Shown: positions 7,680 through 64,000 of the stretch, piece after piece
How positions within the stretch are numbered: the first letter of the stretch is position 1
Layout: each line of letters starts with the position of its first letter
NCBI GenBank assembly: GCA_965645245.1
Contig: OZ287084.1
Span: 310,001 to 374,000 of the forward strand
Direction of reading: 5' to 3'
DNA from: Massalongia carnosa
Taxonomy: Eukaryota
Length of the DNA: 64,000 bases
Notes under the pieces: model-generated
What the model was told of the DNA's origin: nothing
What the model saw: the letters and a program-made list of their open reading frames with translations, nothing else
Databases searched by the model: none
Made by a program: the position numbers and the translations under genes

Positions 7680-8989
7680 CATCCCCTTGATGAAGATTTT
7701 CTTCCTCAGTGGAATCTTCATCATTTCCTTTCTCATATCCTAGGCCTAATAGCCTGATGAATTGCTTTTGACGTTGGGGGGTAATGACTTTGTTAGTCCA
7801 TCAGCTAGAATGTTATTTGTTGAAACCCATTCTATACCGATTTTTCCCCTAGATATTTCCTGGCGGAGCCAATGCTTGTGAATATCCACATGCCTAAGCT
7901 TGGTAATAAGGCGGTTAGTGGTTAGGGCTCGAATGGTTTGACGGTTATCGCATTGAATACCAGTTGGATGATCGAGATGGAAATTTATTGATTGAAAAAA
8001 GCGAGTCCACTATATCAATTCTTTCCCTGCGGCTGATATGGCTAGCAATTCGGCCTCGGTTGAGCTAGTTGTGACTGTGCACTGCTTAGAGGCCTTCCAA
8101 TCGATCATTCCATTGAATAGTTTGAATGCATAGCCTTGAGAGCTATATCTAGTGCTTGAATCATCTGCGAAGGATGCATCGCTACTGGCCAAGAATATCT
8201 CTCGTGAATAAGTAGCCTGTGTGTTGAACAAAATTGCTAGATGCTTAGTATGGGCTAGATATTTAAGGGTACGGTTGACGCAATCCATATGATGTTTGGA
8301 TGGGTTGGTAAGAAGTTCCGATAATTTGGAAGCTGCTTGGGCCACATCGGGCCTAGTGATGACTGCGGCAAAATTCAATGATCCTACCCGCTGTTGATAG
8401 GAGTGAATTTCTTGAGCTGTTGCCATGGAATTATTTTTGGTTAATTCTTCTAGTGGTAGTGGTGATTGTGTTGAACGCTTGGTGAGGTCCAAGTTGATGT
8501 TGAACTTGGCTATTAGCTTGTCAATGTATGAATCTTGGTATAGCCATAGCTGACGAATATTCCTATCCCTGATGATGTGAATTCCTAGAAACCATTCCAA
8601 TTGACCCAAGTATCGCATTTCGTACTTCTGAAATAGTAGAGCTTGAAACTGATCCACTTGATTGATGTAGCGGCGATCATATAATATGACGATATCATCC
8701 ACGAAGAAGAATAGCAAGATATGAGTATCTTGACTAATGAAAACGCAGTCCACCCCCGGGACGAGTTCAAGATTCATCTCGATTAGGACTTTTGATAGAT
8801 TTTGGTACCATAGGGCCGGTGATTGCTTGAGACCGTATAGTGCTCGCAATAGGAGTAGTAGAATATTGACTTTTTCTGATCTAGGCCACCCCTCGGGCAA
8901 TTGACAATAGGTAGGTTCACCAATAGGACTATTTGCAAATGCATTGACTGCGTCGTACTGGCGTGTTTCAAGGTCAAATGCGGCTAGTA

Positions 8990-9450
8990 GTAATTCGGCT
9001 AAGGCGAAAGGTAATGCCGGGACCGAGTGGAGGCAGGCCGCGAAACAGCCGACGAAGGCTGAAGGCCGTGGATAGCCGAAGGACCGTGGAGGCAGGCTGC
9101 GAACAGCCAACGAAGGCCGAAGGACAAAGGAGGATGATGTCCAAAATAGTTGGACAAGCAAGGGAGAGAAAGGGCATAAATAAATAGGTGGCCTTTTGGC
9201 ACTCTTCTCCTCATCATCACCATTGATTCGGAGTTCGCACCAAAAGGTCTTTTGCCCACCCACCCACTCCCTAAATCAGCCGCATAGGTAGATGGAGTTT
9301 TTCCCCTCACTGCTGTCAAAACAAAGCCATTATAGGAGGGGCCCTCAGCAAAACTGAGCGCCAGCAGGGCAGCAGCGTGGGGAGAGTTACACAAACATAG
9401 ATAGAAATTATGTATATGTTCAGCTGACACGATGGAGCCCGCGAATTACA
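8990..9450 (+). mobile_element. Solo-LTR-like insertion within the copia RT
   Basis: Inverted termini GTAATTCG...CGAATTACA; two internal ~60-bp direct repeats (9020-9125); removing it rejoins RT as RALMA-I-LAAFDLETRQYDAVNAF. Confidence 0.75.
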
Positions 9451-12400
9451 TAGCCATTAGCGCTCTAAGAATCCGTGCGGCCAAGGTGGCTGCAAAGATA
9501 TCTTGCTCGGTACGTTGAAGATCACCCCTAGCACATAGTCTTGATTTGTATTTGACTAAATACCCCTTTTGATCGAGTTTGTACCTGAACACCCACATGG
9601 TTGGAATAGGTGTTTTCCCTGCTATTGTTGCTGCATTGATGTTGACCTCGGTCCAGGTGTTCTTTGCAACAAGCGCCTGAATTTCCATCTGCATGGCTAA
9701 TTTGAAGCCCTCTGCATGCGGATACTTTAGCATTTGACGATAGTTTTCAGGTTCAATAGGTAAGCTATCTCTATGAAAGCGAGTGCTTTGAGTCGGGGTA
9801 TGGTCTTTTTTAGGCTCTTGATTGGAGATGTAGTAGGAACTTGCCATGATATTGGCCGAGAATGCAGCGTGATATGATTCAACTCGCCATTCTTGGCTTA
9901 TGTTAAGGCGGTTGAATAGGCTTCATAGCGTCTACTGCGATTGCGACTTCTTCCCATCCCCTCAGGTAAGATATTATCTGTATCGATACTTGAATTGATA
10001 TCCCTTGATGCTTTTCTAGACTTGTTACTCTTTGCGGTGATTGATTCTGATGGATTTGGACCATGAATTAATGGGTTTGGGCTTGATGAGCTGGTAATGG
10101 AGGGGCTCGGTGTTAATAGGTAAGTGTCGTCTGATGAAATTTCGGCAGCATTTCCGTATCCAGAATTTTTGTCCAGAATTATTTCCTACATATTTTTCTT
10201 CCATGCCTTGTATGTTTTCCCTCATGCCGATTCCCCTTTCCTCCTCTTCATCATCCGATCCTATTTCGGTGATAAGGGTGATGGGATCATGAAGCTCATA
10301 GGTAATTTCAAGCATAGGTTCGTTGACAGCTTGTAGTAGGTCAATATCGTGTGCATCATAGTAGGTGTTCTCATTAAACATCACATCCCTCGTACGAATT
10401 ACTTTTCTTTTGACTTGGTATCCATACTCGAAAGATATTTCTGGCTTCATACCCTAATAGATGACCGATATGTGCTCGTTCTTGAAGCTTTTGCTTCTTT
10501 GGTAGCTGCTTGTTTAGTGTGTATGCTTTGCATCCATAGTGGTGGAGATGGCTGAGATCGGGCAGGTTTCCTATGACTAGCTCGTAAGGTGTTTTCCATT
10601 GGTGCTTCTTCATTGGTGTGCGATTAGCTATATATCCTGCGGTGCGCACGATCTCCGGCCATAGGAAAATTGGTAGTCCCGCGTCAATTCTCATTGCCCT
10701 TGCTTTCATGGCTAAAATCCCCCCTTTTCTCTCAGAGTGGCCGTTTTGCTCCGGTGTGTCGGGTGTTGATGATTCATAGGTGATGCCCTTTTCAACAAGC
10801 AAGTCGTTCAAATTATTGCCCAATGACCGTTCTCCATCTGACCGAATAAACACTACCTTAGCCTTGAAGCGAGTCTCAATAAGAGTGGTTGCCTCCTTGC
10901 ATATTTTCGATGCATCCCCTTTACGTGGGTGGGTAAATACCATATTGAAATCGGTCGCATGGCATGCAAAGTGTGAAACGCATTCATCTTTATTCATCGC
11001 GGTGTTGAGCTGCATTAAATCATAATTGATGCGATAAAAGGGCTAATTTGATATTTCTGCATTTCTGATGAACGAGAAACAATGCGATGTGCTTTGGATA
11101 ATGCGCAAGGTTCGCACTCGTTGGTTTTAGGGACTTTTCCTTCTGATTCTTCTGATATTTTGACTCCCCTAGTAGATGACTCGAGATGTTGAATAGATTC
11201 ATCCGAGGCATGGGCTAGCATCTGATGCCATTCGTATGCTGTTGCGGTTTTATTGATAGCTATCTTTGATTTCTGTTGCTCTGGGAAAGCTAATGCTTGA
11301 TCTGATGATGTGCTGTCCTCTAGCAAATAATGGCCGTTATAGCGCTTTACATAAGCAACCGTTTTCCCTTCCCGATGGAGGTGATTCTTCCAATTATCAA
11401 AGTAAAGGCCTTTCACATAGAGCAAGTCCTGAGAAACTAGGTCGGTCATGAAGTTAGATAAATAGGCTACATTTAGAAGTGTGATGCTTTGAGGTCCGGT
11501 AGGAGTTGATACGGTGATTTTGACCGTACTATAGCTTTCTATTGCTAGGCGTTGGGTGCCCGCAGTTAGATACTCTCCCATTGATTTCTTTTCCTGTGTG
11601 TAGCGCAATTTCATGGTGTTGTTGCACACATGGATATTAGACCCGTTATCCAATATCCATGAGCTCTTGATTGTGTAGCTATCTGCCGAGAATGCTGACG
11701 ATGTTTTAGTAGATGTAAAAGCGCCTAACTCCTTCTCAGTAGTGTTGGTGTTGGTGTTGGTGGTTTTAGTGGCTTTTGATTGTTGTATTTCCTTTGATCG
11801 CTGAAAGGATTTTTCCACCTTAGCTTTCAATTGCTGGTCTTTCATTGCTTCATCAATCTGTGTTTGAATTTTGGGTCTGGAAGTCCAATTTGAGGGCCGC
11901 TTCTCTGGTACTAGATAGTGGCAGTCATTGTACCAATGAACGGACCCACAAAGACATTTGGGAGGCGTTTTTTGCCCATTAAATGTCGCTCCCTGTCCTT
12001 CCTTCTTTTTCTCGGTTGCAAAAGCTGAATGCGTGTTGTTATTCTTATTTTTTTGCGTTTGATGCAGGCGAACATATTTGCGAAAGCTCTCAATTAGCGG
12101 GTGGAAATCTTTCTCTTCCTTGTTGTCCAAAGTAATCAGATGGGCGTTGGCAAATGAAGGTTCGGTGGGAAGAACGGCCATTATAAAATCACGAATAGGC
12201 CGTGTTCCCATCATTTCACCAACTCCATATGCCTTGCCATCGGTGCAGACTGTTTGCCATTCTTCTAACCATGTTTCTATATCCTGCTTGCCTGATCCCT
12301 TGCATAACCTGTGATATTTGTTCTCGATCTCTATGCAGCGTGCTGAGTCGCTCGGTGCTAAGCGGATTTTCAGTGCTCGAAGCTGCTTCCATGGATGAGG

Positions 12401-12878
12401 CTCTTCTTTCTGAATGTAGGTGGCATTTTGGACTGTGATGGTATCTTGAATGAAGGTAATAAGGTCGGCAAATGCCTTTTGCTCCTTTTCGTACTTGGCC
12501 AGCTGGATTTTGTAGATGTGGGTTTGTGCCTTGTATACTTCGTAGGCTCCTGGGGTCAAAAGTTGCGGCGTCTGTTGATAAGATGAACACCAGTTTCGTT
12601 GGCGATTGAATGCTTATTGGCTTGGTAATGATTTCTGGATTCACTAGGTCTTAAATTCCGCTGTTTGTGGCCCGTGATCGGACGAAGAAAAACCAGGTGT
12701 CCCAATCGGCTGGCTTGCCTAGGACTATCTTTCGCGTGGTACTCATGTTGATTTTTGATTTGATGACTTGATGGTTATTTGATGCAAAATGATGTAAACT
12801 TACAAGGTAAGGTGCAAGTTGCAAAATGCAGGTTGGTTCTTTCTTCTAAAACGATAGATGTGCTTCCGGGCTCATAAC

Positions 12879-44846: not shown

Positions 44847-47259
44847 CTGGCTCTAATTATCTTTAGGACTTATATACATGTTGTGATAAAGAATTCAAGT
44901 TTTATGCATTTGTTTCAGCTGCATCATGTCGCAGCTTTACTCTGTTCACATAATCCAAAATGTAGCATACATATTCAGGCAAGGGTACATTGACGAATGA
45001 AGTCCCCGCGGGGCCGTGCCAAAGAGTTCCCGCTCAAGCTCCTATGTCGGAGCAAAAGATGTTGACTGAATGCTACATACATGTAGAGTACCTTGTCGTT
45101 ATAACCTTTCTCGTAGTGGTTGTAAAAAGCACTAAGACGGAGAACGGAGTTGTTTGCTCCGAGAGCCTCTATCGGAAACGGAGGAGCAAACTCCGTGTAA
45201 GGCGAAGCGAGCGGCATTTTCTTTTCTCCTTTTCCGTAGTGTAAACTTCTTTTCAACCTCATCCCACCCTCTATCAAGTGAACACCATTCAAACAAAAGG
45301 CCATGGACAAGAAGATTGCTGTCGCCGACAAGGATACTGACCCCGGACTTTCTAAGAAAAAACTTTTTTGGAGGCTGCGCTTAATAAACGTGCACGTATT
45401 GAGCATGATTCCATTTCCAGCAAGCAATCGTGCTTTCTGACTCTAGGCAAGTGAGGCAAATGACGATGCTGGTTTTGTACATGCCAAAAGAAACTGAGAA
45501 GGGGTCACTGCCTGTAATTCTGGTCTAAACATAACTGGCATAAGTCTCCGGAGAGCATTCGGCAAAGCCAGGATGTTCCTCGAATTTTTTCAACCAGCTG
45601 ATAGCAGCTAAAGCCTATAAAGTTGCTTACCCCAGTAGCTTTAAGCATGGAAATATAGCTGTTAGTCAGAGGCTATCGTGAAGACCGATTAGATTTTTAC
45701 AGCACCTTCTCTTAGTGCTGATGGTATCTTGGCCCGAAAAAGACTCCTCTACATCGTTCTTTGTAGATTTTCAAGAAGCTTCGGCCTGCTTTCCCCACTA
45801 ACTATCGTTGCTATGGTATTTGAAATCCCGGCAATATCTAGGTATGTGCATCTCAGACTTTATCCCCCCTGCTTTTTGCAGCACGAAGAAGGTTAGAGTG
45901 TTATTATTTATTTTATTTCGTCCTTTGAAATAGCTGAAGCTGGATCGAAGGCCAAAATCCCGAACCATGGAGATCATATGTGCAGGCATCGCTGAAGTTA
46001 GACCTAACGTGAAGGTCCTCCAAGAAGAGTCCGGCATAGCCTTTTCGTTTCTGTCCATTTGCTTCCTTTTTTCACTTAATTTATTCATAAACATGTCTTT
46101 ACTTGAGTTTGCGAGTCTGTTTTCTGTTGGTATGCTGGACTGCAAATTTTTTCTCCCTTTTCAATGATGGGGCGTTTTTCCACTTATGAAGAGTTAAGGG
46201 GAAACATCAAATAGCTGCTGTATGATATGGAAATACTGCTGTACCTAGCTGCAGTCTGGGCGCTGCTAGTATAGCTCTGCATCTATTGTTACTTTCGTGC
46301 AGTCTTCGTCTTTTGTTAGTCATGCTCAATGGTGATGGGGGACAAACAACTCTTGCTCAGGTGTGTGCGTATCAATTGATTCGCAGAGGAAGCTAATGCG
46401 TGCGTTTTTTTCCACCATCGTTATGGGTTGCGCCCTAATGGTCCTCTTTATGACACACAACTTTGAAATACAAAACCCTTTTCAAATCCTCTCCCAACCC
46501 CACTTCTTCCAACCTTTGTTACCTTCAGCTATTTTGCACAACCAGCTCTCTTACTGAGTTCTTTTTATCACCAAGCTTGCATACAGTAGCTCTATCTTGC
46601 TCTTCTCCCTAATCATCTTCTGGGGTTTAAGATACTCTAGTGAGAGGGTGTTTTGCAATTCATCAGCAACCAGCTTCATACCATCACTTTGTGGAACATT
46701 CACCTTGCTTTACCACCTGTCTTCCTCCCTACAAGCGACTCGACATAAAGTGGCAGACAGCTTCTGTTCACTAGAATCATCTTCTATTGTACTGAATACT
46801 GCTATGAGAGTATTCTGCAAACCATCAAAAAGCACCTTCACACAATCACTTCGCTATCGACTTCTCACTTCATTCCCTTCCACTGATCAAGTTTGCATTC
46901 AGTGCCTTACATCCTTTCATCATCAACTTGCTACACTCGATACTCCTGGGAAGTATTTTGCAAACTATTAACAGCTAATTTGGTACGATCACTTACCTAG
47001 CAAATCAGCCTTCTTGCCTACTTTAGTCGGCTTGACTGCACACCAAGCTTGCGCTGAGAGAGAATCAGCTTGTAATCATCCTGCTCTTCCTCTTTTGTAC
47101 TAGATTCTCCTTTAGAGCGATCGGAAAGCTATTAAATATTCGATTTCGTACGACCACTTCACTGAAATAATACTTGCCTCTATCGTTTCGTCGGATTACT
47201 CAGACAGGCTTTCGGCGTATCTTTACCATCGCTTCCCCTCTGACAGATTCTCTGGAAAG

Positions 47260-50200
47260 ATGCCCTCTAAAGCCAAGCCAGTCTCGGTAGCTGTGTCAGG
47301 CGGGGATTCACAGCCTTCTAATCGTTCATCATTAGCACCCAGTACTTTCGATCTTCCGCTACGTATCACCAGGGCCAGGGCGAGACAACTAGCAATCAAT
47401 CCTTCGGAATCATCGACATCTAAGCTTGGAGCCTCCACGGGTTCGCGTGCAGCTGAACAATTATCCTCAAAGATTTCATCCTCTACTGACGGCTCTATCA
47501 GCAATACAAAATTATTTCAACCGAATCGCCTAAAGCGTTTACGTTCACCCTCACCAGCAAAGGTTCTACCGTCTAATGATAGCTCTATTGCCAGCACAGA
47601 GTCATCTCAAGCCAATCCTTCAAAGCGTTTGCGTACAGCAGAAACCTCATCAATAAAGGGCTCTCTTTTTAATGATAATAGTATTGCCAATACAGAATCA
47701 TCTCAGCCTATTAAAGCAAAGCGCCTACGCACAACTAAAGCGCCAACAAGGATTCCACCGCCTGCTTTCGATGTCACTCCCCTTAGAGAGCCATCTGAAT
47801 CTAACAAACCAAAGCTTTTGGTTATATTTAAAGTCTCATCGACAAAACTTCTCCCTTGGAACAATAGCTCTATCGCAAATACAGAGTCATCTCAACTGGA
47901 CAAGCCAGAGCCTTCCCGCCTAATTAAACCGTCATCAAGAGTTTCAGAGCCTGAGGCCGATCCTATCCCCAATGCAGAGTCATCCGAGTTTAACAAACCA
48001 AAACGTCCACGTATAATCAAACCGTCATCAAGGATTCCACCACCTGCTTCCGACTTTCTCTCCAACACCGGGTTAGCTGAAACTAATAAACCGAAGCGCG
48101 CACGCGCTGCTATATCCTCGGCATCAAAGCCTCCACCCAAACGTCCGCGTATAACTGCACCACCATCATCAAAACCTCCACCGAAACGTCCACGTAAAAC
48201 TACACCATTATCAACAAAGCCTCCGCCACCTAATGTTTGCTCTATCGTTAATGGAGATAACAACAGTGAGAATGAAGAAGGTGCAGATGGCGATGATGAG
48301 GAAGAGAATGGTGCAGTAGGTAACATATCCATGAAAAGACAACTTTCGCGAACAGATCCGCCCTTGAGCGATCTCACAGAGATATTCGAGGATATTGTTA
48401 AAAAGGCATTATCTTTGGGCCTTGACCAAGTGCTCAAGAGAAATGTAACAATCAAAGTTGCGACAATGTGCTCCGGGACCGAGAGTCCTCTCCTTGCTCT
48501 TATCGCATTTCGTCGTGGTAAGCATACCCTTGAATTGAGACTTTCTCAATATTAATATCGAGTAGCATTGAAAAAACTCGCCAACATTGATTTTAACTTC
48601 GATCATCTATTCAGCGCGGAGATTGAGCCTTACAAACAGTCCTATATTGAGAGAAATTTTGGTTCCAAAATAATTTTCAGAGACATCAGAGAACTTACAC
48701 ACGGCGATAGAGCGTATGCAAATCCTACACTCTGCAATCTTTGTTGTAGCTAATAGTACTAGGTTCAATGCTTATGGACAGCTTGTGGATATTCCAGGTG
48801 GCGTCGATTTTCTGATCGCTGGCTTTTCGTGCGTCGACTTTTCTAGGCTGAATTCTCGTGGCAAAAATCTAAGTGACCCTGGTGAGTCTGGAGATACCTT
48901 TCGCGCCATTGTTCATTACATGGTTAAATATCGCCCTGCGATCGTAATATTAGAGAATGTGCAGGGCGCGCCATGGGATATCATAAAGGCAATCATTGAG
49001 AACGACCGAACTTATCTCAAAAATTATTTCAATAAGCTCCACGTTGATCCGTCATGGGCATACGTATGGGATGAAGACGATAACGCCTACGCAGCCAACT
49101 TTCTTAGAGTCGATACCAAAGACTACTATATCCCTCAAACTCGCTCCCGCGGTTACATGGTTTGTATTGATAGCAAAAAAGATTCTGATGTGAGCCAAAA
49201 GGTCGAGGAGTGGGGCTCGCTCATGGCTAAATTGCGACGACGGGCGAGCAGCTCTGTCGAAGCATTTTTACTTCATGAGGAAGATCCTAGACTGCACCGA
49301 GCAAGAGATCAATTAGCCAGGCGTGGCCGCGAGATGCGCCAAACCGAATGGGTACTTTGCGAAGGACGAAACCAGGGATATCGGGACGAAAAGCAACTAG
49401 GCCCAGAGCGACCACTGACACGCTGGGTCAATGGGGGCTCCTCAAAGGCACCCGATTATTGGTGGTTGGAGTGGTCTGGGGTTCAAGTTGAGCGAGTTTG
49501 GGAGACTATGGAGATATGCTTCTTGAGAAACGCACTTGGTGGATTTGATCCCCTATACAAACCGTAAGTACATGTCTAAACATGAAATCTAAATGCCGAC
49601 TAACCTGTCATAGCCGAGTTTGGGATTTGTCTCAAAACATTGACCGCTTTGTTGATGGTGCCCCGCCTGGGATCGCCTCATGTTTGACCCCAGCAGGTAT
49701 ATCATTTCTAACCATTCGAGGTGGTCCTCTTCTCGGTTTAGAAGCACTTTCGTTACAAGGACTGCCAATAGACGAGCTGTTGTTGTCGAGAGAGACTGAA
49801 AAGGAACTTTTAGGCCTTGCTGGCAACGCAATGACTTCCACAGTTGTAGGAGCCTCTATTCTAGCTGCATTAATTGTGGGACGTACAGCATTACAGCTGG
49901 AGAATAGAGAGTTTTCTCACATCTCGAGAGAAGAGGTTTCTAAGGTAAAAGAGATGACAGAAGAAGCGCTTGGCTCCAGCAAAGCTTTACAACTAATGGC
50001 CGAGGAGAATGCATCAATAAAAGTGCTTCATGCAACAGCGTTGGCAAGTGCATGCCTTTGCCATTGCGAAGGACAGACAACAACAACCCGAAACCAGGTT
50101 TACAGGTGCCTAGATTGCCACCATACAGCATGCGAGAAATGTAAAGGAGTGCCTGAGCACTCCTATGGCACTGCGGACGAGTTGCCAATTCAATCTCGTG

Positions 50201-53200
50201 TTCATCCTTCTAATTTTGTTAAGCAGATTAAGGCAAATCTACCCATGAGATTGGTCCTTGTAGGTCTAAATATCGCAACATTCAAGCTTGCTAGGACAAA
50301 AGTACAGAAAAAGCTAAATGAGAATGGTTGGAGCCTTTATATCCCAGCTATCACACCAGCTCTAGAAGAGGAACTGCGCTTTCATAGAGCAACGCGAGGT
50401 ATCAAATGGATTGTAACCTATGATGCAACACATTCTATCTTGCAACTTGTATTTTCCACAGATCAGATATGTTGGCAGTTATATGCGAAGCCAGAACGAA
50501 CACTACCTGTTAATAGTCCACTTCGGGTCCTATTAAGGCAGCCGATTGCGCGCATGCAGGTCCAAGGTAATGAGTTACTCTCCGGCAACTGGAAAGTCAG
50601 CATCCCCATCGACTGGAAAGTTGAATTGGATATACGTGGTGCGGGTGAGCAAGTTAAATGCTGGGAAGCAAGCCTGGGTATATTTGATCCAAAAGTAGCT
50701 GACAAAAAAGTGTGGTCTACCTTACACATAAGCAAGAAACTTGGTCCAGCTCGGGGGTCAGCAGACGATAAGTCAATTGATAAAATTGCTGGCGAGTACC
50801 AGTTTCTGCCTAAGTGTGGTACGGCATCTGGAAGCTTGCACAAGCGTGTTAATTCGAAATCGAGTAGAGCGCTTGAGGTGTTCCTTTTCCTTGACCCAGG
50901 ACGGACCAGCCTTCCGCATGAAGATGGATTCGTGTTCTCCCGAGACAACCATCGACTGAAATATGAGGAAGTTCGGGATACAATCGCCTCAATGAACTTA
51001 GCTTGGCGACCCACAGATGTTTTCCCACAGCCCCCGGATGTCGATTCACAGCTCACAGACGTGCCGTTTTGCCAATTTGCTATGGAAGAGGTTGAGTGCG
51101 ATGCTAGGCTACAGCCTTTTAATCAAGACGTACCTTTTTACAAAGTACCTCTGGGGGATATTAGTGAGCTTGTGTCTCAAGTCTTTTGGAACTCGACCAG
51201 GGCTAGCCATACTTCCAGTTGTAACTCAGCCATCTTTACCGTATTATCCTGTGAGGTACCCTTGAAGACTCTTGAAAACACCGATTGGACACAAGGCGCA
51301 TGGTTCGAAGTGGACAAAAAGAATCTTCGGCGAACGTTTGCCGGATTTAACTGGCTTCTTGAAAGGGCGCGAAACCTCCAGAATTTTTCAAGCGAATGGC
51401 GACCACTAGAAATGCCTGTCAATATCGAACGATGTCAGACTTGTGCCCCCAAGCGACCCGCAGTCAGATGGACATTTTCAACTGGTAGAGCACCCAAGGC
51501 TATACCTTTCGACGACCCAAAGCAGGCAGGAACTTTCGAGCGCGCCATAAAGGCCAGGACAGCTCCATTCGTGACACATACCAGGATCGATGATCAACAG
51601 CGCGGTTGCATCAAAGTTGGTCTAAATGTAGTTTCTTTGGCTCATCGAGCAATGAATAAGCTTCCATCTACTGAGTATCTTCGTTTATCTTGGCGTTTTG
51701 ACGCTCAATATGAGTGGCCGGCAAAGATTGAATTCGATACCTTTACATTAAAGAACAACAACGACGAGGAGGAGTTGGTCCATAAGTTTGTGGCAAAGAT
51801 TCGCCATCCAGATGGTAGTTTCGAAACTCCCACGACAACAAAACTCCGCCCAGAGCAGGCGAGGTCACTAAGGTGGATGGTGAACCAAGAGTCCGGCAAG
51901 ATCGCCCCCTTCATCGAGCAGGAGATTGAGGAGACTACCTTGGCCGAGCTTGGTTGGCGAGCGGAGGCTCGCGCCGAAACACCCACCAAGGCTCGTGGAG
52001 GCGTGCTTTCAGATGATGTTGGGTTCGGGAAAACGCTGACCATCTTGGCTCTAATCGACATTCGCATGGACGATGCGAAATATGTAAAAGACCGCCAGTC
52101 ACATGAGGATACTGCATCCGAACTCATTTCGCTCCATGCAACGCTCATTATAGTTCCAAAGACGCTTTTGCGGCAATGGAGCCGGCAGATTGAGAAGTTC
52201 TTGGGATCCAAATATAAAGTTCTAGAAATCTGGGATATGCTATCGTGGAACACCGTTACACTCAAGCAGTTCAAGAGTGCAGATATCATACTTGTCGCTT
52301 GGCCGGTATTTAGTAGCCCAATCATGGCATCCAAAATTGCCCTCTTTGCAGCATTGCCCGAGGGACCAGCAATAAGCCATGGGAGAGCTTTCAAAACTTG
52401 GTTAAACCAGGCCATCCAACGTATTCAACAAAACACAAAAATATTTCTGAACTCGACAGATTTGGAAAGCTTTTACAATAATCTCGATAAGTCGATTGCC
52501 GACATGGAAGCTGATGACGAGCTGTATCGCTCAGTGCCCACAAAGCGCTTCAGAGGAGCAGCGTATACTGAACAGACTAAGAAAGCGTCTAAAGCGTCAA
52601 CCAGTAAGGCAGCAGCGAAGACCACTAAACCCCAAGCAAAGCGCGCCTCTACTGTGTTCAAACTGACGAAAAACGGCTCCCACGATCAGATGAAGGGCCC
52701 TCCTTTACAAATGTTTCGTTACAATAGAATTGTCATAGATGAGTATACATACGTAAAGGAGCAAGACATGACTATTGTTCAGTCGTTGAAGGCCAATTAT
52801 CGCTGGGTGCTATCTGGAACTCCAAGGTTAGGTGATTTCACGGATTTGCAACTCCTAGCGAGCTTTCTGAAGGTGAATCTTGGTGTCGACAGTGACGCTG
52901 CAACACTTCAGTCACGTCAACAAAGGAAATTTCGGCAAGAGAGAACGAGTGAGTCACCATCTTTTCACTTTCTTTTCACATTTTTCACACTCTTCCCCTC
53001 TCTTCACCCTCTTCGCCCACTTCACCTTCTTCAACCTCCTCACCCTCTCCCTCCTTCCTTCTTCCTCTTTCTTTCCTCCACCTTCCTTTTTCTTTATACT
53101 ATATATACTTTTTTTTTTTATATATATACTAATTTTAATAGCTGGCGAGGAGTTTGACTCCTTCGGCCAGTCGTTCTCGCCCGCCTGGCACCAAGAGCGC

Positions 53201-55084
53201 CACGGGCATGCCCAGGTCTTTCTCGACCACTTCGCGAGGAAGGTAAGCATACTACATTCACTTTTGCTTCAGAGGCATGGCTAACAATGCGATAGAACGT
53301 CGCCCAAGTTGGCGAGATTCCAATAGTTGAGTCCGTATATCCCATCACGCTATCGACGATGGAGCGGATCAGCTACTTGGAACTCGCGCAACAGGTAGGC
53401 TCGCAAGATGTGCGCCAAGTCCGGGGTGGCAAATCAAGAAGCGACGGTGATCGGGTGCGCCGTATCAATGAAGTGCTTCGGTCAAGCTCCTCTTCGGAGG
53501 AGGCACTCATTAAATGCGGCGCATTCTTCACGGTCAAGTCGCTAGCCACCTCGGAGGATCCGACTCTAACTCCCCTCGAATATCTCATTCGAGAGCGGGA
53601 GGTACAAGAGCAGGACTTGGTGAAGGAAATCACCACACATCTGCGGCATGCCGAGTGGCTCTACCGCCAATGTGGGAACCCGGAGTCTGAGTACTCGAGA
53701 TGGCAGTCGCACGTCAACGAAGGTTGCGTGCTCGACCCCGACACAAGGGGTCGGCTACTTGGACTGATCTCGAGGGCTCAGGAGGGTTACCACGAGAGCC
53801 ACGAGGGCGAGTTCTACCGAGAACCGCGAAGTGTCGCCCAAGCCCGAGAAGACAAGGCAAGAATGCGGGCTTGGGAAAAGGACCAGAAGGAGGCCAAGAA
53901 GGGGAAGAAGGGGAAGAAAGTACCAGCCAAGAAGACCAAGCGGTCGGAGAAGGCCAAGGCTGGGACTGACGAGGACGACGCATCTGATGGGACCTCCGAG
54001 AGCATAAGCTCAAAGGAGTCCCAGAATGATGTCGACGCCCTCGAGCAGCCTCTGCCGCCTTTCTTCGACCCAAGGCCAGACAGAATCCCTTGCGCAAATA
54101 GAGAAGAAAAGCTGAAGGCGCTCCGTAGGCTGACGGGTCATCTCAGACGCCTAGGGAGCGACCTAAGCTTGCGCAAGGGATCTCTCCGGTTCTTGGAGAG
54201 TATCAAGGCCACCATAGATTGGCAGGCTGGTACGGATGGACCGTTGAGGTGTGCGGGCTGCAACACCACCAACGATCCTAATCTCACCTTCATCCTCGGC
54301 CTCTGTGGGCATATCGCCTGCTCAGATTGTCTGCGCAGGCGCCTCCGGGGGGAAACATGCGTCGCGGCCGGGTGCGACTCCGCGGCCGAAGGCCACCACA
54401 CACACTGTGTGGCGGAGTTTGCCGACCAAGGGCAGCCGGATGTTAAATTCGGCTCCAAAACCGACGCGGTCCTTCAATGGATCATGAATACCCCAGAGGA
54501 GGACCAAGTCCTCCTCTTCGTCCAGTTCGAGGACCTCATGGACCAGATCACCACCGCTTTGCATGCTCTTGGCATAAAGTTCCATGCCATCCGGAACAAC
54601 AAGAGCATGGAAGCGGCGGAGAACCTGGATCAGTTCCAGGAGGAGACAAGAGCTGGACGGCGGAGGAAAGTCATCCTCCTCAACCCCTCCAACGAGTCGG
54701 CCGCAGGGGCGTAAGTCATGCCCACTTTTCCAGTATCTCAAGATTTCTTTGCTAACCCTTTGGACTTCTAGCAACTTGACCAACGCCAACCACGTAATGT
54801 TCGTGGCTCCGCTCCTCACCTCGTCGCTTGCCGACTGGGTCGCCGCAATAACTCAGTGCATTGGGCGGGCGCGACGATACGGTCAGAAAAAGATCGTATT
54901 TGTCTACCACTTCCTCGTCCTCGACACGATCGATGTCGATATTTTCCAAGACAGGACGGGGAAGCGCCTAGTGGAGACAAGCGCCGGCGAATGGGAGATG
55001 CTTGCCGCGGATCAACTCTCGGACGATCAGAAGAGAGTGGACCGCGGCACTGGCTTTACGAAGCAGCATCCATCCGCCGGTTAA
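47260..55084 (+). CDS. DNMT5: DNMT5-type C5-cytosine DNA methyltransferase fused to SNF2 ATPase and RING finger; introns 48518-48565, 48714-48762, 49564-49613, 52949-53141, 53243-53295, 54711-54771
   Basis: MTase motifs VATMCSGTESP (I), IAGFSCVDFS (IV, SC), ILENV (VI), PQTRSRGY (VIII), AGNAM (X); SNF2 motifs LRPEQARSLRWM, GGVLSDDVGFGKT, RIVIDEY, WVLSGTP; RING CAGC...CGHIACSDC...CVAAGC; helicase-C AAGANLTNANHV, QCIGRARRYGQ; frames join across all six introns. Confidence 0.93.
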
Positions 55085-55976: not shown

Positions 55977-56279
55977 TTTTGTCTAGGCTCTTCTCTCCAT
56001 ACACACCGGCTCGTATTTCGCATATTACATTGCAAAGGAGGAAGACTCGTTTCTTCGGTTGACGGCGTCAATTATCGGGTCTTGTTATAGTTTGATCGGA
56101 AAATTTATACTGGATCTATGTGGAAAGCCAAGCGCCAGTTCAGTTCAATTCAGAGCTGGTTTTGTGACTAAAGTTCGCTAAGGAGGATTTTAATCAACCT
56201 CAAGCTAATGCCGATTTCACCTTCACTCTCCACCGATAAAAAAAATCTCACTTTTTACGACTTCACCCCTCCTTCTTTC

Positions 56280-56860
56280 TCTTCTTCTAATCCAATTTCC
56301 AACCCCCCAGCTTTCCGAAATACTCGCCATCATCCAGCCAGCTCATTCGAGATATATCCCTCATTCTATTCTTCCCAGACAACGTTAGAGATGGAATTAT
56401 CAGAAATCCAAGTTTGGGCGTGAGTGCAAGGGTTAATATGTATGTATGAATGAATTCTATCAATGGCGAAAATGTTGACGAATCCGCAAAAGCAAAGAAT
56501 CCGGGAAAATGCAACGTCGACTAAATTGCAAGGCAAACAAACGCGAAATCCTTTCGAACCCCCCCCTCTCTCTCTCTATTCCTTCTAATCCATTTCGCAA
56601 CCTCTCAGCATTTCGAGACAATCACTATCATTCGATCGGCTTCCTCAAGAGAACTCTCTCGCTTCATTCTTTCCAACGACGTCAGCGCTAGAGACGGGAT
56701 TATTCGGGAATATGAGTTTGGGCATAAGTGCAAGGATCGATCGGGTATGTTTGTATGAAACCTCATCGACAGCGAGCGAAATTGCTAGCTAACCCGCAAA
56801 AGCAAAGAACCCGGGAAAAAGCACCATGAGCCAACTTTGTAAGGCAAACAAACGCGAAAA
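56280..56860. repeat. Diverged tandem duplication, ~295-bp unit x2
   Basis: CTTCTAATCCA..., AGTTTGGGC.T.AGTGCAAGG, CCGCAAAAGCAAAGAA.CCGGGAAAA and AAGGCAAACAAACGCGAAA occur in both copies. Confidence 0.85.
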
Positions 56861-57408
56861 TAAGATTCCTGATGAGAAAGAGCGGGGGGGGGGGGCCAAG
56901 GGGATGAGAAAACAACCACCGCGTGGCACGAGCGATCGGAAAGGGAGGAGCAATGAGAGGGAATGAGTAGTGAGGAGCGTTTACGTGGACGTGGAGGAGT
57001 AGATATGAATGATTTTCTTTGGAGTTTGGTAGTGTAGGAGAAAGGCAACTAAGAAATGGGCGAGTAGCAAGAGACCTAGTAGAAAAGTCTGGTCTGGTCT
57101 GGCGCGATGTGATACAATTGGCTGTATATAATATCCCAAGTTCCCAAGCTATGGAAAGATAGAGAGAATGGCTGGCTATTTAGATGCATATCCTCGTCGT
57201 CATCTTACAACCTTTTCAAACACTTTCCTGCTAGCCGTAACAGCCAGACCAAGTGCCCCAACTTCCTTTTACCACTCCCGAGTTTAGTCTACCAATCTGC
57301 TACACGTCGCTGCGTTTTCCGGTCTTGGACCTATTAGCTATGCATCGAAATAGGTAAATACATCAAGGGCCGAACATCCTTTCCGGTGCTCCCCAACCCC
57401 TACTTGTT

Positions 57409-59558: not shown

Positions 59559-62233
59559 ATGGATCAAAGCAGCGACACAAGTCCACTCTCTAGTGCTCCA
59601 ACGTCTTCTCCTGATTTAGGAAAGTCGCCATCTGATATGATGAACACGCAAAACAGATCCTCTAGAGTGACCCGGTCTCAGGCTGGTAGCAATCAAACAC
59701 AAAACAGCCCTTCCGGAAAAACCAAATCGCAAGCTGATGGGGATCAAGCACAAGATACCCTTTCTAAAAGGACCAAAGCTCAACCTAAGGGCAAACAGGC
59801 ACAGAAAAATGAAAGGTCTGTAAAACTGAAAACCCGTACAGGGTCGCAACGCTAACTTTTGAGAATCATTATAGCGATGATAAAAGATCAACTATTGTTG
59901 GAGGTGCGAGTAAATCGCCCCCAAAAAAGGTTGGTAGCAATCACTCTAGAACTGTATATGGAAACTCAAACTTATTGGATGTTTAAGACAGCAAAAAACC
60001 CTGCAAAAGGAGGTCGCCGTTCTGCTGTAGGACCGAAATCTGATGTGAACACCAGAAATTCTAATGCTCAAGCTGCGACATTGGATCACTCGCAGATTAC
60101 ACTAGCCACGAAACTGAAGCCTAAATCCAGGAACGTGAAATCAAACATGACGGACGGGCTTCAGTCATTGAACACAGAACTCATTGCAGGAAGCTCGCTC
60201 AAAATCAACGGTCCGGACGTTGGCCAGGTGTCCAACACTAAGCGGTCTTCAAGGAAATTAGAACTCACCAATCCAGAGTCACCGGTCCAAGCTCGAGCTA
60301 AGAGCACGCAAATATCAGTCTCTTTAGCTCACAACACTGACTCGGTTCAAGACGAAAGCAACGGTACTGGTAAGACGTTTAGACGCAGACCCACGAGAGC
60401 AGCCAGAGCTAGTAAATCTAACCCTCCAGAAAATCTTATTGTTTCTAATTTGAAAGACAATTTCAACCGGAGTGATACTCATAATCTCAACATGAGCAAA
60501 GTAGTAGCTGATAGCTTCACACCGGTTGAACCAAAAAACTCCTCACCTACAAACCAGACCACTCGGCGCCGAAAATTGAAGAGAGAGGGTGAAGCTGCTT
60601 GGAAGATATGGAGAGCACGGAAAGGTAGGTGCAAGACTTTTCCATAGTTGCATTATCTGGTTTCTGGTTTTGCTAATGTCTGACCGTGATTGAGTAGAGC
60701 GGATATTGGAGTTTTTCAAACAGCCCGTAAATACCGACAGCTCCATGGTCGTTCCTGATGGATTCAATTTATGTGAGGAAGAAGGGGTGTATGTATTCTC
60801 CCCAACGGCGGCAGCACTAAGCAACTTTGAAACATTTCTTGAAAAAGCCGAAGAGGTAGCTGGGCGGAGGAGAGGCGTGGTTAAAGTTATCCTACCAAGA
60901 GAATGGTAAGTCATAATTTCCATTCTACAGGCACTGTAATCAACGAGAGGTGTGTTCTAATGAATCACCCAGGACATTGGTGTATCCACCTCCACATCTT
61001 GTCGTAGCATCGACCTCGACAACAACAACAACAACAACGCTAGATAATAGCCCTTCGACCTGGATTCGGCCGTATAACACGAAGCTCAATCTCCATGTGC
61101 CGCTTTCGCATAATCTGCCAATGTACAAAGTCAGCATGCTCGGTGCGATCAACACTCCTGTAGCTGAATGGCAGCAAGAACTAGAAAGAGATCGAGAGTC
61201 AGTGATTAGAGGATGGGCTTTAGATCAACCTTTTCCCGATGATGTGTACAATGCCGTCATGTATTCACTTCCGGAAAAGCAAATGATCGCCCGGAGTCAA
61301 GCATTAAGCGAGGGAGAATATTATGCTGAAGATATTGAAGGTTAGTGATTGGAGCGATTTCAAAGTTCTGGGGTCGCCGCTAATATGATTGCTACATTAG
61401 CAACTGATATCCTTCGAAGGGCCATGCAATGTGGAGGACCGGATCTGCGACGTGTTCAACCAACCAATTTCCAAGGGCGATATCGGGCAGACGATAAGAC
61501 GCACTCATTCTTTCAAGTCTCTGGGGCTCAAGGGTCGCCATTTGGTCTTCGAACATCAAATGGAGCAGCGTATATCCTCAATTATCTATACCGCGGTGCT
61601 CCCAAAAAGTGGACGATTTTTGAACCAAGCGAAACTCCAAAGTTGGAAGAATTCATTTATGAAGACGTGGAGCTTGCAGGAGGGCGGTTAGAGAAACTGC
61701 GGTCGGGCCACAAACCGCCCACGCACCCTCCACGATGTGATCAGTTCTTGGCGCACGAGCAGTTTTATCTGCCGCAGGAGACGTTATTGGCCAAACATCT
61801 GAAGTACTCAGAAACGATCCAGTATCAAGGGGAGATCATCATCATCTTCCCTCTTGCATATTACCAAGGGTATAGCACCGGACCTAGTCTGGCCGAGAGC
61901 AGGAGATACGTCAATCGTCGCTCTAAAGATATGGGATATAGCGACATATGGCAATGGTGCAGTGAGCGGTGCACGGGGACCGAAGCCAAATACGCCGAGG
62001 ATCATCCAATGTCCGAAGAACCTGGAGATGAGGAAACGGCCTCAAATAATCCTCAAACGGGGCGTATTTCCGTGTCTTCACTTCTTAATGAGGCGGGCCA
62101 CGAAAGCACCTCTTCAGCAGCGCCAATACCCGGCCAGAGTTCTGTCCACACCAAGATGAGTGTTGCCAGCCTCCTTATACACGCAGAGGCTGTGACGGAG
62201 ACAAGGAATCAGAGCGGCGACGGGGACGCCTAG
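59559..62233 (+). CDS. KDM4/JMJD2-like JmjN+JmjC domain protein, predicted catalytically inactive; multi-exon (5' exon boundaries uncertain)
   Basis: JmjN GVYVFSPTAAALSNFETFLEKAE...GVVKVILPREW; JmjC YYAEDIE|, LNYLYRGAPKKW, CDQFLAH, QYQGEIIIIFPLAYYQGYSTGPSLAES; introns near 60626-60696, 60906-60972 and 61321+ (GTTAGT..CTAAT..TAG, ending 61400). Confidence 0.88.
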
Positions 62234-62912: not shown

Positions 62913-64000
62913 CTACGCCTCTTCCTCTTCACTCCTCACGCTGGCAGTCACAAGTGCAGCTGGAGGGCTGCATTCCGTATTGCTCAAGCGTCTTTCTTCG
63001 AAAAGTCCACAGGGCTTTTCGGAATATCTCTTACCATATAGCCGCCTACGTGAAGAATACAACGAACATAGAGGGGACTCTGTGCCGGGAGGCGATTCAA
63101 AGACAGCGGTTTCACAACACGCCGCCTTGTTGCTGGTTGCGGGAAGATGGTTGTAGAAAACATGTTGACGGCTAGTGTAAGGGGTTGCTGACTTTACCCC
63201 GTCCCTGCCGGCGATCAAGTAAATCTCTACCAATACGGGGCTGATCGATCTCATAAACATTTCGCAAAAGTACGCAAGTTTTTCTATCCTATCGATCATT
63301 TCTTGCAACATAATATCATTTTACGAGTAATCCAGCCCTTGGATATTGCCTCAGAAGTCCCTCCAGCAGATGCTCCAGGAAAACCCCCCCATTTCTGAAA
63401 ATCCATCCTCCCGTAGCCCGCCAACCCCTAAAGGATACGTCGTGCACTCAAAGATGGGTATCAGATATGACGGAGATGTGGAGAGTTGCTTTCACCAGCA
63501 ACTGTAGTGCAAGAAAATGTGGATCTCCATCGAGGAGTCGGACAAATCCCCCTCGTCGTCCATCCTCATCACTTCCTCAATCTCGTCGTCCGTCGTCGCT
63601 TCCTCGATTTCATCGTCTGTCATCGCGTCCTCGGTTTCGCCGTCAGTCGCTTCCTCGATCTCGTCGTCCGCCACAGACGCCTCGTCCACCAGAATGTCAA
63701 TCGTTATATCATCACTCTTCACAATTTCTTTCACCGTATCCTTCTCCACTTGGTCCATCTCAACAACCGCCCACGTCCTCTCTCCACTTACCTCAACCTC
63801 ATGCGAGGGGTTGCCTTCCAAAGTCCCCTTCCAAACACCAATTCTCTCCAATCCTCCAACTCTCCTCTTCAACTCCTGCAGATCCTCCTCCGAGATCCAG
63901 CATCCCCCTAAACATATCTCCTTGCAAGATTTCCACCGGATAGCTGGTGCACTAAACCACTTTCCTTTCCCCTCCTTTGCCGCCACCTCATCTAACAACA
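62913..64000 (-). pseudogene. Partial/possibly decayed gene running off the window end, with acidic 8-9-aa tandem repeats
   Basis: ORF 63492-63998 carries (T/A)DDEIEEA-type repeats encoded by 24-27-bp tandem units (63570-63675); the same frame continues to 62913 through in-frame stops; product unknown. Confidence 0.3.

Follow-up and report, generated by a model that had tools for sequence, protein, structure and literature searches.

Analysis of a 64,000-nucleotide stretch of Massalongia carnosa DNA (contig OZ287084.1; hereafter the window) showed that a gene at positions 59559 to 62233 encodes a JmjN-JmjC protein of the KDM4 type in which all three Fe(II) ligands are replaced while the JmjC fold appears to be retained. 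The window is fungal DNA and lies at positions 310001 to 374000 of contig C18, in a genome of 52 Mb and 25 contigs. The gene belongs to a real and old family of JmjC pseudoenzymes in lichen-forming fungi that apparently has not been described so far. The reading that we favor, with some reserve, is that its product is an old noncatalytic JmjC scaffold, probably associated with chromatin.

The JmjC domain was recognized by PF02373 at 61523 to 61900 (E = 9e-13, 49.1 bits, cutoff 24), and KDM4 headed the 39 matches (E ≤ 0.001) of a phmmer search of the PDB. In the ungapped part of the alignment to human KDM4C (PDB 4xdo), the KDM4C segments FAWHTED and FPYGYHAG were paired with FGLRTSN and FPLAYYQG. 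The residue roles described for KDM4A in PMC6010108 are H188, E190, and H276 for iron; Y132, N198, and K206 for 2-oxoglutarate (2OG); C234, H240, C306, and C308 for zinc; and Y177, E190, S288, and N290 for the methyl-lysine pocket. Aligned to KDM4 (all positions on the plus strand), the first Fe ligand is replaced by R559 (61550 to 61552), the second by S561 (61556 to 61558), and the distal one by Y663 (61862 to 61864). The 2OG C5-carboxylate contacts N198 and K206 are kept as N569 and K577 (61580 to 61606), and Y132 is kept as Y503 (61322 to 61324), which was placed by alignment to intact orthologues. The first half of the zinc site is kept as C621 and H627 (61736 to 61756), and the presumed second half is C695 and C699, with CxxxC spacing (61958 to 61972); the equivalent of K241 is E628. 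The tally is thus 0 of 3 Fe ligands, 3 of 3 2OG contacts, 4 of 4 zinc ligands (the site being placed by alignment), and 1 of 4 pocket residues, the pocket reading Q547, S561, S675, and R677 with S288 alone kept. The equivalent of D135 is also kept, and those of Y177 and D191 are lost. Judged by this alignment, the protein lacks both the Fe triad and the complete methyl-lysine pocket of an active KDM4/JMJD2 demethylase and is probably catalytically inactive. No C2H2-like motif was found by pattern in ten full-length family members, and no other Pfam, reader, or DNA-binding domain was found by Pfam search in six.

These replacements were also read in independent data. In lichen-metagenome run X4, from another study, the whole gene is present in one contig that differs from the window by 14 changes per 3 kb, and the three Fe-position codons are unchanged; contigs from X5, also from another study, cover all three codons with 0 differences. 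An assembly error is therefore ruled out, since the X4 and X5 contigs read the same three triad codons. Runs X6 and X8 gave nothing useful for the gene.

Structure predictions were made for exon 6 and for the annotated orthologue P0163, in place of the spliced window protein. The AlphaFold2 model of exon 6 (200 amino acids, 27-row alignment) had a mean predicted local distance difference test score (pLDDT) of 78.5 and a predicted template modeling score of 0.73, with barrel blocks at pLDDT 85 to 97 and a disordered loop at residues 108 to 115. With this model, every match listed by Foldseek was a KDM4 structure (best E = 7.5e-11, probability 1.0). The model of P0163, a full-length triad-less protein from a Mycoblastus sanguinarius cluster, showed confident JmjN and JmjC domains with disordered ends (mean pLDDT 51.9) and also matched KDM4 structures, and ESM Atlas matches were to generic JmjC/KDM4 clusters only. 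The predicted models are thus consistent with replacement of the metal ligands in a retained JmjC fold, as in noncatalytic JmjC proteins.

The loss of the triad is shared by a large group of orthologues. A phmmer search of 1.84 billion representative sequences returned 805 proteins at E ≤ 0.001, and family rows were taken from the best 150 of these 805. Twenty rows (the window's own entry, one repetitive artifact, and 18 partial rows) were removed before a quick tree of 134 rows, in which the query was placed among 47 rows that lack HxE...H; together with five intact basal rows, these make up a group of 52. A metagenome scan added 30 loci from 181 pattern matches, 7 of them canonical KDM4-like and 23 in the subfamily, the latter representing nine lineages (seven triad-less and two intact). 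A more careful tree of 67 rows was then computed with the three triad columns removed. It contained 44 of the 47 triad-less rows (P0126, P0060, and P0096 were omitted as long or fragmentary), six triad-less and two intact loci, five intact rows, and 10 outgroups. All 50 triad-less rows came out as a single clade with 95/92 support, and 93% of bootstrap trees had a branch separating them from the other rows. This clade is nested in a larger one of 57 rows (100/95), in which the seven basal rows are intact. Names were found for 12 clusters among 30 proteins looked up. The named triad-less members (Xylographa pallens, Letrouitia sp., Lecanora helva, Toensbergia leucococca, and Mycoblastus sanguinarius) are all Lecanoromycetes (5 of 5) and span Ostropomycetidae and Lecanoromycetidae. 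The named intact members of the same clade (Xylona heveae, Pycnora praestabilis, Candelina mexicana, and Sarea resinae) all belong to other classes (4 of 4), namely, Xylonomycetes, Candelariomycetes, and Sareomycetes; according to PMC12238968, whether these small classes form one group is disputed. More distant intact members were named Peziza, Rhizina, and Glutinoglossum. Identity of exon 6 to the Xylona protein is 40%. A word-index homologue search was insensitive here, returning 0 of 718, 1 of 6,383 (an irrelevant KDM5-like protein), and 1 of 1,583 candidates.

Within the triad-less clade, the ligands appear to have been lost stepwise. None of the 47 rows has the full triad; 22 keep no ligand, 20 keep one, and five keep two. 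Position 188 is Q in 28 rows, R in 13, A in 3, and H in 1; position 190 is G in 17, T in 7, and E, N, S, and A in 5 each; and position 276 is H in 23, Y in 16, C in 3, and F in 2. The five two-ligand rows have D/E and the distal His and belong to a basal branch of six rows, suggesting that the first His was lost first. In contrast to the Fe positions, the zinc ligands are nearly invariant (C in 46 of 46, H in 45 of 47, C in 45 of 46, and C in 44 of 45). Site rates estimated for the clade (47 rows, 184 columns, tree length 30) placed the zinc ligands at percentiles 1 to 3 and the Fe positions at 30, 51, and 35, with N198 at 36, K206 at 32, and pocket positions Y177, S288, and N290 at 49, 41, and 57, respectively. 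Pocket residues vary freely in the clade, Y177 being replaced by H, Q, N, or D and N290 by A, M, L, P, or V. N198 is kept in 29 of 47 rows, and position 206 is K in 13 and R in 27. The conserved set consists of the barrel core, the zinc site, JmjN, and an extra helix before JmjN. Selection preserves the structure and not the chemistry of the active site or the methyl-lysine pocket. The intact orthologues of the same clade keep H-x-E...H, Y177, D191, and K206.

The original prediction, made by eye, had held that all three Fe(II) ligands are substituted in a preserved JmjC fold, and this was confirmed; the KDM4C phmmer alignment contains no alternative HxD/E...H, which would speak against it. 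It had also pointed to the retained Asn and Lys, which holds for the window protein and fails for the family; because N198 and K206 vary within the family, they are weaker evidence than the zinc site, which had been overlooked. The JmjN domain said to be retained is present and aligns well within the subfamily, but its PF02375 match is weak (E = 0.003, 17.8 bits, below the cutoff of 26); intact orthologues score alike (18.8 and 18.1 bits). Finally, the frame described as open does run for 785 amino acids, but it is interrupted by five introns, and the stretch noted is only part of exon 6.

Two further groups of rows in the quick tree touch on the same subject. P0079, P0118, P0100, P0105, and P0141 are triad-less JmjC rows (ESY, QSF, RAH, RAY, and QDR) outside the main clade, pointing to putative independent losses in other KDM4-like groups. 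Rows between P0061 and P0148 form several more intact KDM4-like groups apart from Rph1 (those named being Peziza, Rhizina, and Glutinoglossum), suggesting that fungal KDM4-like families may be more numerous than the usual six groups.

The triad-less genes have remained under purifying selection. Ratios of nonsynonymous to synonymous substitution rates (dN/dS), computed by NG86 on the JmjC exon, were 0.10 for the triad-less pair L019/L022 (dS 0.77, dN 0.079) and 0.21 for L026/L028 (dS 1.14, dN 0.235), compared to 0.10 for the intact pair L017/L034 (dS 1.13, dN 0.111). A tblastx control on conserved neighboring gene segments of L026/L032 gave 0.07 to 0.39, which is a rough guide; some segments were in the wrong frame, and in two pairs the JmjC exon was not picked up. 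Within-lineage polymorphism in the JmjC exon amounted to three synonymous and two replacement changes in L027 to L033, with identical counts in L015/L016, and to none within L019 to L021 or L022/L023. Between the window and the X4 haplotype, the coding sequence differs by 12 changes and by an in-frame deletion of 3 bases, with no frameshift or stop. A lone pseudogene is ruled out by the dN/dS of 0.10 to 0.21 between triad-less orthologues and by the absence of the triad from all 47 clade rows. The proposal that this is a selected noncatalytic protein and not a decaying gene is thus upheld by the clade-wide loss, the conserved zinc ligands, and these ratios.

Position in the genome supports orthology between the intact and triad-less genes. 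The upstream neighbor (47116 to 55084, plus strand), identified by PF00145 (C5 methylase), PF00176 (SNF2), a RING-like domain, and synteny, is of the DNMT5 type, an architecture that matches the description in PMC9676040. A DNMT5-type gene lies upstream in both intact lineages and in three of the five triad-less lineages with enough flanking sequence; it is missing from that position in L019 to L021 and in L022/L023, and in the latter, the window's next-upstream genes adjoin instead. The DNMT5-type gene is an orthology marker, the most deeply conserved neighbor, and an obligate coupling to DNMT5 is unsupported given the two of five assessable triad-less lineages without it. The downstream block (an uncharacterized gene, a DEAH helicase, and GCN1) is present in all five assessable triad-less lineages and in neither of the two intact ones. 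Seven of 10 loci examined (the window included) have a phase-1 intron of 51 to 63 nt ahead of the JmjC exon, and two of these seven are intact. Because position and intron are common to intact and triad-less genes, the loss occurred in place, in the orthologue, and not in a new duplicate.

At least eight JmjC matches were found in the genome (10 candidates scored), including an intact Rph1 (HLED...YHSG) on contig C2 and an intact KDM5 (HNED...YHAG) on contig C1. A protein search of the genome with exon 6 returned only the window locus and Rph1 (three candidates), and the gene appears to be single copy. It lies outside the Rph1/KdmA orthogroup, as the separate intact Rph1 groups elsewhere in the tree. 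A recent Rph1 duplicate is ruled out by the tree placement, the single-locus search result, and the conserved gene neighborhood. One other KDM4-like JmjC in the same genome (L009, 3985 to 4637, minus strand, corresponding to approximately 1041985 to 1042637 of contig C4; also L004) keeps H-x-E...H, but its tblastn match is split between frames −3 and −2 immediately past the distal His, and a further stop lies upstream. The locus seems to be a broken copy, a mobile one, or a misassembly, the opposite of what the window gene shows. Downstream of it are protease-like fragments that we take to be Ulp1-like.

Together, these data suggest the following history. Pezizomycotina have a second KDM4-like JmjN-JmjC gene besides Rph1/KdmA, and the window gene is an orthologue of it, apparently in single copy. 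The iron site of this second gene was probably lost early in, or before, the radiation of Lecanoromycetes while staying intact in Xylona, Sarea, Pycnora, and Candelina, with the first His probably going first and then Glu and the distal His, the distal His repeatedly. Established JmjC chemistry implies that Fe(II)/2OG hydroxylation would be impossible with no metal ligand left. What would remain is a folded, zinc-stabilized JmjN-JmjC module on a long low-complexity N terminus with a motif resembling a nuclear localization signal (NLS), kept by purifying selection. Ancestry and the NLS-like motif suggest a nuclear, chromatin-related role, and the protein probably acts as a nuclear noncatalytic scaffold that sits on chromatin or contacts chromatin proteins by way of surfaces outside the old methyl-lysine pocket, with demethylase activity presumably supplied by Rph1 and KDM5.

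Several points weigh against this reading. Exons 1 to 3 are a prediction from splice sites and open frame. The fast-evolving triad-less rows could group through long-branch attraction, and a Lecanoromycetes-wide loss is an extrapolation from five named rows of 47. The intact orthologues themselves have A for S288 and G for N290 of KDM4A, and their demethylase activity is presumed from sequence. The window's own lineage evolves fast, with a branch length of 0.75 compared to 0.31 to 0.40 for three sister rows in the careful tree. Between the window and every available orthologue, synonymous change is saturated (proportion of synonymous differences, 0.76 to 0.82), making dN/dS on the window's own branch unobtainable; selection there was traced by polymorphism and the zinc ligands only. 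The X4 comparison gave three synonymous and no replacement changes at amino acids 346 to 699, no synonymous and seven replacement changes at amino acids 1 to 312 (Fisher P = 0.008), and two more replacements, at amino acids 318 and 704, but this test involves only 10 changes with the boundary drawn at the domain edge, and at amino acids 313 to 705, three of five changes are synonymous (P = 0.08). At this sample size, the replacement excess in the low-complexity N-terminal part (59559 to 60600) is compatible with neutrality. Of the 45 slowest residues in the family, the protein retains just 32 (range, 30 to 42), and it is without the family-typical GN motif and the W of ASDRW. It may be, then, that the family is a selected pseudoenzyme and that selection has been relaxed in the window's lineage, the gene drifting to loss. 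The long terminal branch and the lost motifs would fit such a course. However, the four zinc ligands, the splice sites, and the 785-codon frame are intact after approximately 0.75 substitutions per site, core polymorphisms are synonymous, and the sister rows are equally low (30 to 35 of 45 slow sites), indicating a shift of the subclade. We regard relaxation as very unlikely.

Other explanations assign a function to the old active site. The dead pocket might bind histone H3 trimethylated at lysine 9 (H3K9me3) or lysine 36 (H3K36me3) and either protect the mark or compete with Rph1; the KDM4 fold is kept, as is the zinc site beside the peptide groove, the window protein still has the S288 and D135 equivalents, and Epe1 with its His-to-Tyr change is described in PMC7192584 as binding an H3K9me3 peptide with no detectable demethylation. 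A reader or shield of this kind is nevertheless unlikely, as Y177, E190, S288, and N290 are not conserved in the clade (rate percentiles 41 to 57), and in the alignment, R559 and R677 would place positive charge at the methylammonium site. Of the "reader or scaffold" that had been proposed originally, the scaffold is thus the better fit to the predicted role, and the methyl-lysine reader is not favored. The module might instead be a metal-free metabolite sensor, in which a 2OG-like dicarboxylate is bound, Arg or Gln replaces the charge of the iron, and the bound state controls partners. All three C5-carboxylate contacts are kept in the window protein, 40 of 47 rows have a basic residue at position 206, and 41 have Q or R at position 188. 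Yet the contact sites lie at the 30th to 36th rate percentile, far faster than the zinc ligands, several orthologues lack the Y132 equivalent, and Q and R are each one base away from His codons, so history may explain both; we consider a sensor distinctly improbable. An extended version, in which the protein was inactivated early in the main lichen-forming class and the metal-free module senses 2OG-like metabolites or docks DNMT5/H3K9me machinery (DNMT5 being the ancestral gene neighbor), linking the carbon state of the fungus to chromatin in the symbiosis, is speculative and has an equally small chance of being correct; if it were true, the intact orthologues elsewhere would form a natural before-and-after pair. 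Residual or new catalysis with another metal or cofactor arrangement, for example, with Tyr663 as a ligand, could be read from the 39 of 47 rows with H or Y at the distal position and from the five basal rows that keep D/E and the distal His. It is extremely unlikely: 22 of 47 rows, the window's among them, are without a canonical ligand, the replacements differ by lineage, and Gis1 and Epe1, with the His-to-Tyr change only, are already described as having no detectable activity (PMC4085034, PMC7192584).

The noncatalytic JmjC proteins known so far are isolated examples, among them animal JARID2, which is KDM5 related and has ARID and zinc-finger domains. JARID2 is described in PMC4687429 as a JmjC protein without demethylase activity that serves as a scaffold targeting Polycomb repressive complex 2; the likeness to the window protein is one of kind, and neither homology nor a common partner is claimed. 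Among the closest known systems is KDM4/JMJD2 itself (human KDM4A to KDM4D, yeast Rph1, and Aspergillus KdmA), which shares JmjN and JmjC, the Cys-His-Cys-Cys zinc site, and the 2OG-contact positions and provides the best PDB sequence and fold matches. The window protein differs in lacking the Fe triad, in its altered pocket, in having an extra helix before JmjN and no PHD, Tudor, or C2H2 domain found, and in forming a lineage separate from the genome's own Rph1. The intact Xylona, Sarea, Pycnora, and Candelina database proteins share its 100/95 clade and architecture, and two intact metagenome loci of this group share the DNMT5-type upstream neighbor and the phase-1 intron; unlike these intact proteins, it has lost the triad, Y177, and D191. 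Saccharomyces cerevisiae Gis1, a KDM4-type JmjN-JmjC paralogue of Rph1 with a distal His-to-Tyr change, is regarded in PMC4085034 as inactive, but Gis1 has DNA-binding zinc fingers and its first His (H204), whereas the window protein has no ligands and no DNA-binding domain was found in it. Schizosaccharomyces pombe Epe1 is likewise a JmjC protein with a His-to-Tyr change and no detectable demethylation, for which PMC7192584 describes nonenzymatic antisilencing via HP1 and H3K9me binding. It differs in being KDM2 related (the KDM2/Epe1 group of PMC9676040) and in still needing H297; the window protein is KDM4 related with no ligand left. By analogy, the window protein may act like JARID2, Gis1, and Epe1.

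A survey of 109 fungal proteomes, including Cladonia grayi, distinguishes six JmjC groups, and its description of these groups mentions no second KDM4-like family (PMC9676040), although supplementary Fig. S3 of that survey could hold triad-less proteins inside its KDM4 group. No description of a triad-less JmjC family was found in literature, mostly open-access titles and listings, on lichen and fungal JmjC proteins, phylogeny, and pseudoenzymes; PMC2474616, for instance, concerns JmjC-SET proteins. Crown ages given in PMC3683012 for Ostropomycetidae and Lecanoromycetidae are approximately 243 and 236 million years ago, respectively, and if the first loss happened once, the triad-less family would have been retained since before these crowns. 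The earlier cases are isolated, whereas here a whole orthologue family would show stepwise loss of the iron site. Because orthologues with an intact triad are still present at the corresponding position in other genomes, the role of a JmjC protein after loss of catalysis is directly testable. The loss is also a candidate for a change in chromatin that is peculiar to the largest class of lichen-forming fungi, and Pfam-based annotation will miscount triad-less genes as demethylases.

The gene model consists of six exons joined at GT-AG introns (five introns, one open frame, plus strand). Exon 1 (59559 to 59815) begins with the start ATG and encodes a low-complexity N terminus rich in S, T, and K; exon 2 spans 59875 to 59929; and exon 3 (59988 to 60624), whose acceptor lacks a clear branch site, encodes further low-complexity sequence, a basic NLS-like motif (RRRKLKR, 60564 to 60584), and the start of the subfamily-conserved WxxW..KxRI helix. 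These three exons are predicted from the GT-AG model. The subfamily-specific pre-JmjN helix (amino acids 307 to 323, 60594 to 60717), defined by orthologue alignment, spans intron 3, is common to triad-less and intact orthologues, and corresponds to helix 271 to 300 in the P0163 model. Exon 4 (60698 to 60905), located by the PF02375 match and by tblastn to orthologous loci, contains JmjN (60784 to 60897, amino acids 346 to 383). Exon 5 (60973 to 61340) encodes a linker that includes Y503 and ends in YYAED; the phase-1 intron at 61341 to 61400 follows, its position being common to intact and triad-less orthologues. Exon 6 (61401 to 62233) encodes the JmjC beta-barrel core, the C-terminal zinc motif, and an acidic tail up to the stop. 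From approximately amino acid 305 onward, annotated orthologues align collinearly over the exon junctions.

A few other features of the window were apparent. At 63495 to 64000 (minus strand), continuing in L011, is a gene with an acidic repeat tail (DDEIEEA) that gave only a chance Pfam match; in five lineages it is the conserved next gene downstream of the triad-less orthologue. In the interval from the DNMT5-type gene to the JmjC gene, at 56240 to 56830, two diverged direct copies of an approximately 300-bp segment were seen by eye, followed by microsatellites near 57400 and 57950. At 8010 to 12613 (minus strand), a Copia/Ty1-like retrotransposon pol (gag, integrase, reverse transcriptase, and RNase H-like pieces), broken across several frames, was likewise recognized by eye.

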